Shown here: positions 7,411-33,249 of the stretch, in pieces
How positions within the stretch are numbered: the first letter of the stretch is position 1
Layout of the letters: the number at the start of each line of letters is the position of its first letter
Program-made: the position numbers and the translations under genes
The notes under the pieces: model-generated
Seen by the model: only the letters and a program-made list of their open reading frames with translations
What the model was told of the DNA's origin: nothing
The model's database searches: none
NCBI GenBank assembly: GCA_965216065.1
Contig: CBDCFB010000001.1
Coordinates: 1,554,548 to 1,618,547 of the forward strand
Reading direction: 5' to 3'
DNA from: Dehalococcoidia bacterium
Lineage (GTDB): Bacteria; Chloroflexota; Dehalococcoidia; Lucifugimonadales; UBA3495
DNA length: 64,000 bases

Positions 7411-7527
7411 CCACTGGTGGGGGTCTGTTGATTCTCCCTCCCCCCTTGAGGGGAAGGCCCTTCGGCAGGCTCAGGAGGGACGGGGCGAATTCCTGAGTTT
7501 CAACGACCTTTCAACCAACGAGGGACG

Positions 7528-7560
7528 CCCTCACCCTAACCCTCTCCCCAAGGGAGAGGG
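7528..7560. repeat. CCCTCACCCTAACCCTCTCCC-N-GGGAGAGGG REP-like palindrome
   Basis: Near-identical copy at 10510-10541 and degenerate copy near 13832-13861. Confidence 0.75.
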
Positions 7561-10509: not shown

Positions 10510-10541
10510 CCCTCACCCTAACCCTCTCCCGGAGGGAGAGG
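10510..10541. repeat. CCCTCACCC REP-like palindrome
   Basis: CCCTCACCCTAACCCTCTCCCGGAGGGAGAGG; sister of 7528-7560. Confidence 0.75.
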
Positions 10542-15038: not shown

Positions 15039-16160
15039 TTGAGTCCTGCCCTCGGGCGGAAAAAGAGGGGATTTGACCTGAATCTCAGACTGAGTATTCT
15101 CGACCAGAGCCCGGTGCATGAATCGGAGGGCCCAGTCGAGGCCCTGCGTCGCACCATCGAGCTGGCCCAGAAGGCCGAGGAGTGGGGATTCCACCGGTTC
15201 TGGGTGGCGGAGCACCATGGCTCAAACCGCGTCATGGGATCGTCTCCCGAGATACTGGTATCCCACCTGCTGGCCCACACCTCACGAATTCGAGTCGGTT
15301 CCGGCGGCGTAATGCTGCAACATTACAGCCCCTACAAGGTTGCCGAGAACTTCAACGTCCTGGCCTCCCTCGCCCCAGGACGCGTCGACCTCGGCATCGG
15401 CCGGGGACCGGGCGGCCTGCCCCGCTCCACGGCGGCGCTGCGCCGCGGCGTCCTTCGACAGGGTCAGGATGAACGACAAGCTCAGGATGAACGGGAAGGG
15501 GAGTCTCACCACGAACCGGATATGACGCTGACGGAGAAGCTGGGTGAGCTGAAGCGCTTTCTGTTCGACGAACTGGAGGCGGACCATCCCTTGTCCGGGC
15601 TGCAGGCCAGTCCACTCCCGCCACAGCCACCTGACCTGTTCTTGCTTGGGACAACGCGATCCAGCGGTGATATGGCGGCGGAGTTGGCGATGCCCTACGT
15701 CTTCGCCCTGTTCCTGAACAACGACGAGGAAGAGATGGCGGAGGCCGTTCGGCGCTACCAGTCCGGCTTCGCCCTTCGACAAGCTCAGGATGATCAAGTC
15801 CAAGAAGGCGTCCGCCCCTGCACGATGCTGGCCCTGCCCGTAATCGTGGCCGACACCGACGAGGAAGCCGCCGAGTTCGCCTCCAGGATACAGGTCGTGC
15901 GCATCACCCTGGCGAGCGGGCGTACCCTGACAGTAGGCAGTGTCGAGGCTGGTGAGGAGTTCGGCAGGCAGTCCGGCGAACCTTACACGATCACTGTGCG
16001 ACAAGCAGGTGTCGTTCACGGAAATCGCGATTCGGTCAGACGGCAACTGCTGGATGTCCAGCAGAGATACAACGCGGACGAGATAATCGCTGTAACAGCC
16101 ATAGACAATTTCGCGAAACGCCTGCGCTCCTTCGAGTTGCTGGGCGGGTTGATAGAATAG
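15039..16160 (+). CDS. Luciferase-like flavin monooxygenase (MsnO8/CmoO-like) with two in-frame repeat insertions
   Basis: LSILDQSP, RFWVAEHH, RVGSGGVMLQHYSPYKVAENF; true start may be near 15078. Confidence 0.88.
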   Translation: MSPALGRKKRGFDLNLRLSILDQSPVHESEGPVEALRRTIELAQKAEEWGFHRFWVAEHHGSNRVMGSSPEILVSHLLAHTSRIRVGSGGVMLQHYSPYKVAENFNVLASLAPGRVDLGIGRGPGGLPRSTAALRRGVLRQGQDERQAQDEREGESHHEPDMTLTEKLGELKRFLFDELEADHPLSGLQASPLPPQPPDLFLLGTTRSSGDMAAELAMPYVFALFLNNDEEEMAEAVRRYQSGFALRQAQDDQVQEGVRPCTMLALPVIVADTDEEAAEFASRIQVVRITLASGRTLTVGSVEAGEEFGRQSGEPYTITVRQAGVVHGNRDSVRRQLLDVQQRYNADEIIAVTAIDNFAKRLRSFELLGGLIE

Positions 16161-29246: not shown

Positions 29247-30687
29247 CAGGCTGCTGAACAAGGGTCTTCACGTTTGGAATCGACGGGTCAAGTCGTTGGA
29301 GCTTGGGTCCTGTTGGAGGAAATTGTGCCGTTCACACGGGACTTTCAGCCCCTTCGGCTTCGCGGACCGGCCCTCTTGGGGGCACCGGGCATAGCCAGCC
29401 CCAGCTAGCCCATTGTCAGGTCATGCCATCCGGGCTTCCGGAGTTGTCGGCGCCTGCCCCAGCAGCTTGGACATCCGAACCAGGTTGTAGGCCGTGGCCA
29501 CCAAGTTCCCCGCCAGACCAGTCCGGTCCAATCCCCGGTAACGGGTCCGCCGGAATCCGCCCACGGTCTTCATCCACCCGAAGATCATCCACCCGAAGAT
29601 CTCCTCAACCCGTTTCCGTATCCGCTGGCTGACCGCGTACCCAGGATGCCGGGTGGTCCGGCCATCAATGGCGCTGGATCGCCCCATTTTGTTCTGCGCG
29701 ATGTGCGGCGTAACCCCGCGCCGGCGCAGGTCCGCCACGCAGTCCCGGGTGTCGTAGCCTTTGTCTCCGCCCAGCGTTCCGGGATGAAAGCCCCGTCCCC
29801 GGGCTTGCTCCAACAGTTCTGGCACTATATCCCGCTCCGCCGTACTCGTCGCTCGGGTGGTCTGAAAGTCCACCAGCATTCCATACCGGTTTTCCATCAG
29901 GGCGTGGGCCATGAACATCAACCTGGCCTCCTTGCCTTTACGCCTTTACCCTTGCGCAGCAACCGGGCCTCCGGGTCCATGGTGCTCTGATGGGTGGCAT
30001 TGCTGCGCCGTTCCCCATGGAAGTCAACCGAGGGGAAGTCAACCGAGGGGAAGTCAACCGAGGGGTTGCCCGGGTCAGCATCGGTTGTTCTGGGCGGGTC
30101 GCCGTCCTTGGGTTTGAAGCTCTTCAGGCTGGCTGCCGCCTCAATCAGGGTCCTATCCACCGTGAAGTGCCCGGAAGTGCTCGTCCGACAGCAGGCCCTG
30201 CCGGTCCGCCTCCAGCACCACCTCGCCGAACAATGCCTGGCCCACTCCGTGCCTGAGCAGCCGCTCCCGGTTCTTGGTGAAGGTGGTGGCATCGAAGCTG
30301 GCCTCAATCAGGTTCATATCCAGAAACCACCGGAAGAGGAGGTTGTAGTCCAACTGTTCGCAGAATGTCCGTTCACTGCACACCGAGTACAGGGCAATCA
30401 GCAATGACGACTTCAGCAGCCGCTCCGACGGGATCGAAGGATGGCCCACATTGGCGTACATCCGGTCCAGGTCCGGGGACAGCGCCTTCAGGGCTTGGTC
30501 CGCCAGCCTCTTGATAACACGCAGGGGATGGTCCGATGGCACTCGCGTTTCCAGGTCAATGAATGCCAGCATAGTCGCCTGTGAATCATATCTCCCGCGC
30601 ATCGGCTCAACCTCCGTCCAGGGTGGCGTCCTATTTTAACCAGTTCCCTCTGGACTGCCGGGCCACGCCGGGTTTTTCATCAGCCTG
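29247..30687 (-). mobile_element. IS5-family element with frameshifted transposase (30602 to 29421)
   Basis: TIRs CAGGCTGCTGAACAA / TTTTTCATCAGCCTG; motifs RVP.DHPLR, DKGYD, RKRVEEIFGW.K; several frameshifts. Confidence 0.88.
30019..30063. repeat. 15-bp tandem triplication inside IS5 transposase
   Basis: GGAAGTCAACCGAGG x3 (PSVDF x3). Confidence 0.9.
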
Positions 30688-30688
30688 C

Positions 30689-32078
30689 TAGTAGTCCATC
30701 AGTGTTGTATTGGTGGGTAGAGGGACTTGAGCTTGATGCGGGCATCCTCGGTGGTGAAGCGCCAGTCCACCCGTATTGCGTCCCGGTTGCGCTGTTGCTG
30801 CCACGCTCCCACCTCCCGCCGCAGAGCGCTTTGGTCGGGAATACGGCGGTTCAGGCATTGCCGGGCCATCACCCCGATTTCGATCTCCGCCATCCCTTCG
30901 GCAAGCTCAGGACAGGATCCAGCCAACTGCCATGCTTGGGAGTGTAATGGACCTCCAACCGTTCGGCGATGCGCCGCGCTTCGGCAGGCTCAAAGGCTTC
31001 ATACAATGAGGCTGGGTGGTGGGTGTTCAAGTTGTCCATCACCAGCACAATACGGTCCTTGTGCGGGTAGTCCTCGTCCACCAGTTGCTTGAGCACCCGG
31101 GCCCAATCGGCTTTCGTGCGCCGGTCCGTCACTTCCACCCGGCGCCACCCTTCCAGCGGAGCGAACAACATGAAGAGGTTGCTTACCCCGTTGCGCTCGT
31201 ATTCATAATCGTAGGAGCCCGCCGCCCCAGGCCGGGCCGGACGCGGCCGGCGCGTCTCTTTCACCTGTTGCTTGCTGGTCTCGTCCAGACAGACCAGAAC
31301 TTCGTTGTCCCCATACTGGCGCTGATAGACTTCCAGCACGTCTTCCATCGCACAGACGAACTCGGCGCTGCCTTGCGGCGGGATGCACCAGCACTCTTTC
31401 AGCCAAGGCTTGAGTTCGTTTTTTTGAGCGTCTGGCGCACCGTTTCAGTGCTGATGCTCTCCACTACCTCGCATTCGACCAGCCGGTCGGCCAATAGTTT
31501 CAGTGTCCAACTCGCCCGGCCCTCCGGCGGTTCTCCGCAGGCCAAGGCAATCAGGTGGGCTTCCCCTTGACCGTCCAACCGCTTCGGACGCCGGTTAACC
31601 TGCCGCTTTCGTCCCAGCGCCGCCTCAATCCCTTCCTCTACGCAGCGCCGGCGCACCCGTTCCACCGTCGCACGGCCAATCTGGAGAACCCGGGCAATGT
31701 CTTCATCCTTCATGGCCCCGTCCACTTGGGCCTCATCACTCAGCAGCAGGACGCGCCCGTGGGTCTGCTTGTAAGCCGCCCCCCGGCCACGGGACACCAA
31801 TGTCTTCAGTTCCTGCCGCTCCTCCGCACTCAGCTTGACCCGGTATCTCTTCATCGCCATCCCCTCCTCACACGTCCCAATCCTCTTCGCCCTATGCTTG
31901 GTACAATACACTCGCTCAGTACTCATTTCAAAGATGAATGACGCTTTCACAATTTGGGCGGTTTTTGGTCGGTTACCGCCTCGCGGAAGGCAAGTCGACA
32001 AAGCTGTCAAGCGCGTGGGAAAGTCGCCATAAGGTGGTGCTCAAGGTCCCTTCCTGGCGAAGCGTCGTTGTAATACTA
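30689..32078 (-). mobile_element. IS630-family element (transposase 31860 to 30699, frameshift at A7 31419-31425), disrupted by a 23-nt insertion
   Basis: HTH ORF ending LKKTNSSLG; DDE motifs CLDE, MDNLNTH, TPKHGSWL..AEIE; ends TAGTAGTCCATC / TAGTATTACAAC at CTAG sites. Confidence 0.88.
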
Positions 32079-32900
32079 GGTTCTGTTGCAACAGCAAGGA
32101 GTCGCCGCCGTTCAGCAGGAACCGGGTGGCATAGGTGTGCCGCATCAGGTGCGGATGCAGTCTGGGAATCCCGGCGGTCTTGGAAAGCCGCTCCGTGAGG
32201 GACCGCAGGGCCTCGGCGCCCATGGGGAGACCGTCGATGCACAGGAAGAAGGTTTCTGCTCGCTGCTCCTGATTTTCAAGACGGTAGTGTTCCAAGTAGT
32301 TGAACAGTGCCTCTTGGCGGTTGGCGCCGAAATCGACGATTCGCTCCTTGTCTCCTTTCCCAGCACCTTGACGTACCGGCTGCCGAAGTGGACATCCTTG
32401 TATTTCAGGGTGACGACCTCAGAGAGCCTGAGGCCGGTGTCCAGCATGAGGCTGAATATGGCGGTGTTTCTTGCCCCCAAGGTCGAGTTGGGGTTGATGC
32501 TGGAGAAAATCTTCTCGACCTCATCGTTGGTCAGGATGTCTATCTCCTTCTCCCTTGGCTTCGGCGGCTTCACCTTCTCGAGCCGGTGGCACTCGGTGTA
32601 ATCTTCCTCGTACAGCCAGTTAAAGAATGACCGCAGCGCCCTGACCCGGTTGTTGACTGTGTGGCTGGAGGCAGGGCTCCGCAGACCAGGTGTGGTCTTG
32701 AGACAAAGGATAAGGAGCCTCACCTCCTCCTTTCCGATATCATCCAGGCAGGCGGAGATGTCCTCTTCTGCCAGCCAGGTCTGGAATAGTCCCAAGGCCT
32801 GCTGGTACCACTCCACCGTCTTCTCTGAGAAGCCCTCTGACGCCTCGTAGACCATGAACTTCTCAACTAAACTGCTGAGTTCCAGCTTTCCCCGCTTCAT
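32076..32900 (-). pseudogene. Tyrosine recombinase/integrase, frameshifted (~32358) and truncated by IS630
   Basis: LDTGLRLSE, V.GKG.KER, HLMRHTYAT, LLQQNL then IS630 end where GH..Y is expected. Confidence 0.85.
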
Positions 32901-33044
32901 TTTCCTGCTCCGCCGTCTGGTTCCTGCTCTCATCATGACTACTTGCCTCAATTCGAGTAATGGACTGTCAGGCAAGCAAGATGGTCGTGAACCGGAACTC
33001 GTTCGTGACGGCAGGCAGCGTGTCGGATGTGTCCTTGGGCAACG

Positions 33045-33068
33045 AAAAAGCCGCCCGGTCGGGCGGCT
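33045..33068 (-). terminator. Intrinsic terminator downstream of tRNA-Arg
   Basis: Minus strand AGCCGCCC-GACC-GGGCGGCT-TTTT. Confidence 0.7.
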
Positions 33069-33127
33069 CTCTGCCCTCGGCTTCACCCCTGAAAAGGGGT
33101 GAAGCCAAGCTGAGTCATAGCTAATTG

Positions 33128-33203
33128 TGGCGTCCCAGGCAGGATTCGAACCCGCGACCCGCTGCTTAGAAGGCAGCCGCTCTATCCCCTGAGCTACTGG
33201 GAC
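33128..33203 (-). tRNA. tRNA-Arg (anticodon UCU)
   Basis: Full cloverleaf GTCCCAG-TA-GCTC..GAGC-G-GCTGC-CTTCTAA-GCAGC..GCGGG-TTCGAAT-CCTGC-CTGGGAC-GCCA, 76 nt. Confidence 0.97.
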
Positions 33204-33249
33204 TCCTTTCATGGGCGATGGCCAGGGGACCGTCTCGCCCTCTGCATTT

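Follow-up and report, generated by a model that had tools for sequence, protein, structure and literature searches.

The DNA analysed here (the window) is a stretch of 64,000 nt from a sponge-associated bacterium of the class Dehalococcoidia, and the genome has a G+C content of 62%. An IS630-family insertion sequence (IS) is located on the minus strand at 30688..31936. This copy retains 1249 bp, and its left terminal repeat is missing. The right terminal inverted repeat (11 nt, CTAGTAGTCCA on the plus strand) occupies 30688..30698, and the same sequence is found inverted at left ends of the IS. The first reading frame (31399..31860) encodes the helix-turn-helix (HTH) DNA-binding part and ends with TGA after a run of seven A residues (A7, 31419..31425). 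Its putative start codon (MAMKRY) was chosen by eye. According to the profile search, this frame matches HTH_32 (1.1e-16), HTH_29 and HTH_23. A −1 shift at A7 would join the HTH frame to the DDE frame (..LKK NELKPW..). The first part of the DDE_3 domain, with two D residues assigned by homology, corresponds to 30917..31418 and ends with ...HYTPKHGSWLD. The A7 run is present in 45 of the 59 related copies having the motif. As this is the majority state, the run is considered to belong to the way in which this IS is normally expressed, rather than to be damage. The run is predicted to be a −1 shift site, either ribosomal or transcriptional, and the IS would thus already rely on recoding.

The genome contains six copies of this IS with 99–100% identity. 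Four of the other five copies start with CTAGTAGTCCAA, the inverted match to the right end, ahead of CATCTTTG.... The fifth retains only the last 9 nt of the left repeat (GTAGTCCAA), and the window copy has no CTAGTAGTCCAA left end. CTAG is present at the junctions of the IS copies. The HTH and DDE_3 domains and the short terminal inverted repeats with CTAG are those of the IS630 family, and the uninterrupted D, D and E in one frame are absent from the window copy. Contigs of the DNA runs X1 and X9 join 30693 to 31937 with TTAC between them; therefore, part of the population is without the IS at this locus. Relative to this IS-less allele, the window copy lacks 18 nt, namely the left terminal repeat and 6 nt of flank. 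The final 114 nt before the IS are found elsewhere in the genome with 75–89% identity. A second transposase gene (DUF772 and DDE_Tnp_1, IS5/IS1182-like) lies directly downstream at 29421-30602 on the minus strand, split into three frames, and contains a 15-nt tandem repeat (three units) encoding PSVDF three times. On the other side, the IS630 copy abuts the end of a tyrosine integrase gene (32041-33212, minus strand, split into two frames), which lies beside a tRNA (33131-33203). This tRNA is the only Rfam match in the window.

The DDE frame of the transposase is interrupted by 23 nt. On the minus strand, the order is ...GGCAGTTGGCTGGAT, CCTGTCCTGAGCTTGCCGAAGGG and ATGGCGGAGATCGAA..., and the 23-nt insert CCTGTCCTGAGCTTGCCGAAGGG runs from 30916 to 30894 (longer upstream flank, ...CACGGCAGTTGGCTGGAT). 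The insert is located between the ...GSWLD and MAEIEIG codons. The upstream frame (ORF 30869..31348) reads ...HYTPKHGSWLD-PVLSLPKG-WRRSKSG* and stops at a premature TGA (30869..30871), 20 nt past the insert. The downstream frame (ORF 30699..30926) reads ...SCPELAEG MAEIEIGVMARQ... and is open for 96 nt ahead of the ATG. The two frames rejoin via a −1 or +2 shift, and the −1 shift has to fall inside the insert if ...GSWL(D/N) is retained. As a result, the last 64 transposase codons (MAEIEIG...PPIQH*, 30699..30893) are out of frame. The window copy matches DDE_3 (PF13358) at 5.6e-23 with profile positions 2-122 of 146, and the match of the empty homologue L041 is complete (2-146 of 146). The frame break is two codons ahead of the E of MAEIE, which we take to be the third catalytic residue by homology with the LNPIE motif of Tc1/mariner. 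A search for solved structural relatives that could pin this residue gave none at E values up to 10. The initial annotation, in which these 23 nt interrupt a conserved motif and shift the frame, agrees with the ORFs.

The ends of the insert are CCT and AGG, as had been described, and no further terminal repeats are present. It had also been described as flanked by GAT, which is misleading. The empty copies read CTGGAT|ATGGCG and the insert is exactly 23 nt. Thus, no target duplication was formed, and the GAT...GAT arrangement is a coincidence. The remaining families have AAT or AAC, not GAT, to the left of the insert. Within the window the 23-mer occurs once at up to three mismatches (expected 0 from 100 shuffles). 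The IS also contains TGAGCCTGCCGAAG (30980-30993, minus strand, within the ..FEPAEA.. codons) 64 nt upstream of the insert, and this is a 14-nt exact match to a one-base variant of the 23-mer. A local duplication of the native TGAGCCTGCCGAAG was considered as the source and rejected, since it is unique to this IS family and absent from the other filled families.

Empty sites are abundant in related genomes. In a comparison set of 80 loci from other Dehalococcoidia genomes, with the same transposase at 80–98% identity, WL(D/N)(M/I)AEIE is unbroken in 78 (75 by pattern, and L047, L079 and L087 by a variant codon). Of the other two, L097 has a deletion, and L089 has the 23-nt insert with one base different. 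Ten relatives, which are genomes of the same order, were searched with a site pattern allowing 0-30 nt. Among the 131 IS630 sites detected, 108 are empty (0 nt) and 23 are filled (23 nt), and no other length was observed. Filled sites are found in G006 (8 of 19), G017 (10 of 38), G003 (3 of 6) and G007 (2 of 24), and none in G014 (0 of 26), G019 (0 of 11), G012 (0 of 6) and G008 (0 of 1). G031 and G034 are without such a site. In 400 further genomes of the class, a sample that held one other genome of the family, no filled junction was detected. Empty-form contig ends are also present in the two DNA runs X1 and X9. Contigs of the RNA runs X15 and X16 show empty forms from variant IS copies, and empty forms occur as DNA in the same communities.

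These results indicate that the 23-mer is an insertion and that the polarity is from empty to filled. The reading as an ancestral feature, in which the segment was lost by precise deletion from the other copies, is rejected, as the empty form prevails in every clade outside this genome. The search for empty sites had been proposed in the initial annotation, and its expectations were borne out by the 78 of 80 loci, the 108 of 131 sites and the two DNA runs. WL(N/D)MAEIE is contiguous in most related copies; the insertion is derived and has clean boundaries; and a small element entered the IS after the IS itself had formed and breaks it, with the DDE_3 match cut at 122 of 146.

The insertion is not confined to the window copy. 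According to tblastn with the parts before and after the insert, the genome contains 18 IS630-type copies of several families, which are 48–57% identical in protein to the window copy. All 18 carry the 23-nt gap at the same bond, and a 19th copy is truncated with its downstream part missing. In a pattern search of this genome, 16 of 16 sites were filled. Of the 18 inserts, 10 are identical to the 23-mer, 6 differ from it by one base, and the 2 found in decayed copies are themselves decayed (3–4 mismatches). As decayed IS copies carry decayed 23-mers, the hits are both old and new. The window copy had been regarded as the target of a recent insertion; this claim is not supported, as 6 of 6 copies of the IS and 18 of 18 IS630-type copies are filled at the same bond. 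The insertion is a recurrent, site-specific event rather than one recent hit on the window copy.

A maximum-likelihood tree, built from 111 copies after the insert had been taken out, was used to estimate the number of events. It requires 7 gains or losses, and well-supported branches force at least 6 of these. Branches of 0.65 and 0.14 substitutions per site separate two deep IS630 clades, and the bases directly beside the insert differ between families. Since these flanks differ by family, long conversion tracts between families are unlikely. From these flanks and the distance between the deep clades, it is secure that this bond was hit independently at least twice. Recombination could move the insert inside the clade of 80–98% identity; about two IS630 events, one per deep clade, are a safe count. 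The 23-nt junction is present in six other genomes of the genus, including G003, G006, G007, G017 and the one that contains L089. Five near-identical filled copies of G006 have a single empty copy nested among them. Three of these six copies (L132, L135 and L133) carry a second small insert of the same family, with or without the 23-mer. The second insert, CCCTTCGACAAGCTCAGGA, replaces GAT (19 nt for 3, net +16 nt) and is located in the opposite orientation ~250 nt upstream of the 23-mer site in the same IS630 gene.

Outside IS630 genes the 23-mer is also frequent. In the whole genome, 23 exact copies and 82 copies at up to three mismatches were detected. The initial annotation had placed the same short element elsewhere in the DNA, and most of the non-IS630 copies are indeed found at one place in repeats that resemble miniature inverted-repeat transposable elements (MITEs), ~150-170 bp long with the terminal repeat CAGGGTCTTTTAAT. 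The site is between GGGAGAGGGTTAGG and GTGAGGG. At this site, 189 copies are empty (0 nt) and 42 hold 23 nt, which is the present element in 41 cases; a single copy holds 46 nt, a tandem pair. Thus ~41 of ~230 identical MITE-like sites are filled by the 23-mer. These repeats have the terminal inverted repeat CAGGGTCTTTTAAT...ATTAAAAGACCCTG (e.g. G000 C1:1308814, C2:865718 and C2:2139624), and one subfamily has five filled and two empty copies. An IS630 origin of the carrier repeats is rejected, as the terminal repeats differ. Two empty targets of this type are present in the window on the minus strand, GGGAGAGGGTTAGG|GTGAGGG at 7535..7548, which was compared with filled copies, and a second at 10517..10530. 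Two related short elements are also located on the minus strand of the window: TCCCTCCTGAGCCTGCCGAAGGG (7458..7480, 4 mismatches) beside a MITE-like hairpin, and ATCATCCTGAGCTTGTCGAAGGG (15772..15794, 5 mismatches).

A search of 40 genomes of the order, the present one among them, detected the 23-mer at up to two mismatches in 26. Its surroundings differ in other genera, and in one case it occupies the loop of an unrelated hairpin. The 23-mer belongs to a wider family that is defined by the core CTGAGCYTGYCGAAGG and has 122 copies (0 for the reversed control). The folding energy of the 23-mer alone is −0.3 kcal/mol, and those of long-stem relatives are −11.6 and −15.7 kcal/mol. Some members of the wider family are strong hairpins; those at G000 C2:660366-660422 and C2:901683-901739 share the 11-nt loop GAGCTTGTCGA, although their 10-13 bp stems are unrelated. 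The conserved loop on different stems suggests insertion into hairpin tips or a bound factor. At the IS630 target, no hairpin of note was found. Against Rfam, five carrier and hairpin loci gave sub-threshold chance matches, the best being whalefall-1 (19.2 bits, cut-off 37). The right flanks of the three main targets (ATGGCGG, GTGAGGG and GCGCCGG) share the loose motif R-Y-G-N-S-G-G. Some members of the wider family lie inside unbroken frames of 500-780 codons, e.g. at C1 ~1570331 (window 15772-15794) and C1 ~864648, so that their translation may form part of ordinary proteins.

A second transposase family with DDE_3, more distant and carrying the motif ..NLPGYSPDFNADEAIWGW.., is present at G000 C1:285607-286008 and nine other places. 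These 10 copies have frames of 396-406 codons, and none of them is interrupted at the equivalent site. Several intact copies are located within 1 kb of filled IS630 copies. Two decayed copies of this family, near C1:239200 and C2:1527468, contain a related short element in the opposite orientation at an identical position. The site is WDNAPA^HRGE, next to the second catalytic D.

We consider that the 23-mer is probably a very small, non-autonomous, site-specific dispersed repeat. The 23 nt would be a copy of a non-coding repeat that enters in one orientation, with exact ends and without target duplication, at a few preferred sites. In this genus the two main targets are the WL(N/D)^MAEIE codon bond of IS630-type transposase genes and the GGGTTAGG^GTGAGGG bond of the small MITE-like repeats. 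In a transposase gene, the added 23 nt lie two codons before the DDE glutamate assigned by homology, and the normal frame stops 20 nt on. The 23-mer probably disables the transposase by separating the catalytic E from the two D residues, as judged from the reading frames and from homology. Neither an in-frame X XXY YYZ heptamer nor a homopolymer run is present in the insert, and it offers no take-off codon with a matching landing codon by which MAEIE would be kept. A hop between the two GAT triplets has the wrong landing frame and is absent in the AAT families. Since no slippery heptamer, homopolymer run or matched codons are available in the insert, loss of activity is the most likely outcome. 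Filled copies most likely yield no active enzyme and would persist as passive copies. Within a family, the insert may spread when the carrier is copied or when near-identical copies undergo gene conversion, and selection may favour cells that have only broken copies.

The uniformity of the filled families counts against this reading and has to be explained. Within each of them (6, 5 and 4 copies) the members are near-identical, and the genome holds no intact member that could supply the enzyme. The near-identity suggests recent copying. Each family has one variant of the 23-mer (TTG in 6 of 6, CTG in 5 of 5 and TTG in 4 of 4), and the pool in the MITE-like repeats is mixed. A single variant per family fits inheritance after the insertion better than independent hits. 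Between filled copies of one family, the differences downstream of the insert fall mostly on third codon positions (3, 0 and 7 by codon position in one pair; small numbers). Copies within one genome are not independent, and polishing of repeats in long-read assemblies could inflate their likeness. Conversion with selection for cells in which all copies are dead, efficient repeated hits, or residual activity by recoding may account for the uniform, all-filled families.

The last of these leads to an alternative that we regard as quite unlikely, in which the insert is tolerated and full-length transposase is produced at a low rate by a −1 shift in the insert or by a CCT-to-CCT hop. For example, tRNA-Gly would slip from GGA to GGG in AAG GGA TGG, and the product would be WL(D/N)-PVLSLPKG-MAEIE. 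This is the only plausible slip that we found in the insert. The 23-mer would then be a second brake on an IS already in need of the A7 shift, and that shift is an existing reliance on recoding. Such tolerance would explain why 18 of 18 copies are filled and yet the families look recently copied. The family-specific variants, the bias to third codon positions among filled copies, which extends downstream of the insert (few sites), and the two frames open across the insert, the downstream one for the 96 nt before the ATG, are also consistent with it. However, canonical slippery heptamers, homopolymers and matched take-off and landing codons are absent, and eight residues would be added two residues from the catalytic E. 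In addition, most copies in other genomes are without the 23-mer, and the 23-mer is also present in the non-coding MITE-like repeats, so that its conservation needs no coding role. The family-specific variants are also expected if there were only one or two true insertions, followed by recombination or conversion and by transfer between strains, aided by selection for dead transposases and with no hot spot. This history is unlikely in our judgement. It agrees with G006, where all but one combination of the two insert states are present (by recombination or recurrence), and the copies of the large clade, at 80–98% identity, are alike enough to recombine. It does not readily account for the same bond being hit in deep clades 0.65 and 0.14 substitutions per site apart with differing flanks. 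Nor does it account for the same element at unrelated MITE-like sites and, in other genera, in other contexts, or for the related element at one site of the second transposase family in two decayed copies.

The same bond in diverged families may instead suggest that guided machinery, encoded by the host or by an element, recognises the transposase gene, either as targeted silencing of IS630 or as a homing-type cut with repair from a filled copy. Repair templated by a filled sister copy would yield family-specific variants. The filling of all 16 pattern sites in this genome, compared with 23 of the 131 sites of the relatives, and the shared loose right-flank motif R-Y-G-N-S-G-G at the three targets also point in this direction. 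On the other hand, the search, which was made for PF01797, gave no candidate gene, and the motif is short for a genome of 62% G+C. Moreover, G014 has 32 copies of the element family (up to two mismatches) but none of its 26 IS630 sites is filled. We therefore give guided machinery a slim chance. More broadly, it is doubtful that a sequence-directed, possibly guided process writes a fixed 23-nt cassette beside the catalytic glutamate codon of IS630 transposases. If this were true, the cassette would be a dedicated off-switch of the transposon, or a throttle through a second recoding step. It would also be a mobile element of very small size that is truly specific for its target and yet lacks its own enzyme, and the process would have reached every copy in this genome. 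Finally, repeated IS copies are generally prone to homogenisation of the consensus in long-read assemblies, and an artefact of assembly or polishing might be suspected. The same junction is found in other genomes of the genus, always with 23 nt, and the element is also present at dozens of MITE sites with unique flanks. An artefact is thus scarcely credible. The preferred reading remains a small dispersed repeat inserted recurrently at a few preferred sites.

To our knowledge, there are few documented examples of ~20-nt DNA that is mobile or is inserted repeatedly, the small dispersed repeats of Nostoc being the main case. The 23-mer provides a clean system with exact ends, hundreds of filled and empty sites, and one bond of a conserved motif in diverged transposase families. 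With one genome in which every copy has been hit, the insertion process and its effect on transposon activity are directly testable. For annotation, such transposases will be called as split genes or pseudogenes, and translations of the element (PVLSLPKG, LRQAQ and similar) will enter predicted proteins.

Several known systems were compared with the 23-mer. Programmed −1 frameshifting and transcriptional slippage are known in IS630-family transposase genes, e.g. in Roseiflexus IS630 elements. The A7 run (31419..31425), the majority state in the relatives, fits this device, whereas the 23-nt insert, which lies 500 nt downstream and has no slippery run, is a derived lesion distinct from it. Translational bypass inserts are known from phage T4 gene 60 (50 nt) and as the 'byp' elements of Magnusiomyces mitochondria. 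Like these, the 23-mer is short, is not a multiple of three, and recurs across many genes or copies, where it interrupts the frame of a gene that is otherwise intact. Unlike these, it has no matched take-off and landing codons and no take-off stop, and the relatives are mostly empty. In common with MITEs and nested insertions, it is a non-autonomous passenger inside other mobile DNA, but it lacks terminal inverted repeats and target duplication and is 5-10 times smaller than known MITEs. According to an excerpt of PMC3116915, REP and REPIN elements are moved by RAYT transposases (Y1, IS200-like). As far as that excerpt describes them, they resemble the 23-mer in being short, dispersed, linked to hairpins and without target duplication, and hairpins with the loop GAGCTTGTCGA occur in the wider family. 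By the same description they are intergenic, whereas the 23-mer has no stable hairpin of its own and is found in reading frames and MITE-like repeats. A search of 40 genomes detected no Y1/RAYT transposase (PF01797), with matches in 6 of 14 controls, and thus a REP/RAYT identity is rejected. In each of the comparisons with REP/REPIN, MITEs and bypass elements, the 23-mer lacks a defining feature.

The literature search returned nothing on IS630 in Dehalococcoidia or on SDR5 in Nostoc punctiforme, and for the string GAGCTTGTCGAA the sole match was unrelated work on yeast. The closest parallel appears to be the cyanobacterial small dispersed repeats (SDRs). Elhai and colleagues are said to have described in 2008 (Genome Res 18:1484) SDR4, SDR5 and SDR6 of Nostoc and its relatives, with lengths of 21-27 nt. 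The 23-mer falls in this length class, is non-coding and has many dispersed copies (23 exact and 82 near-exact). As in the SDRs, its presence or absence has exact ends in otherwise alike sequences, and it is often nested in repeats or in hairpin-forming sequence. An excerpt of PMC5861425 reports no SDR-like repeat outside Nostocaceae among the HIP1-enriched cyanobacterial genomes examined there. The present element belongs to Dehalococcoidia of the Chloroflexota, and is likened to the SDRs by description, not by sequence. It also differs from them in that it recurrently enters and breaks one bond of a transposase reading frame.
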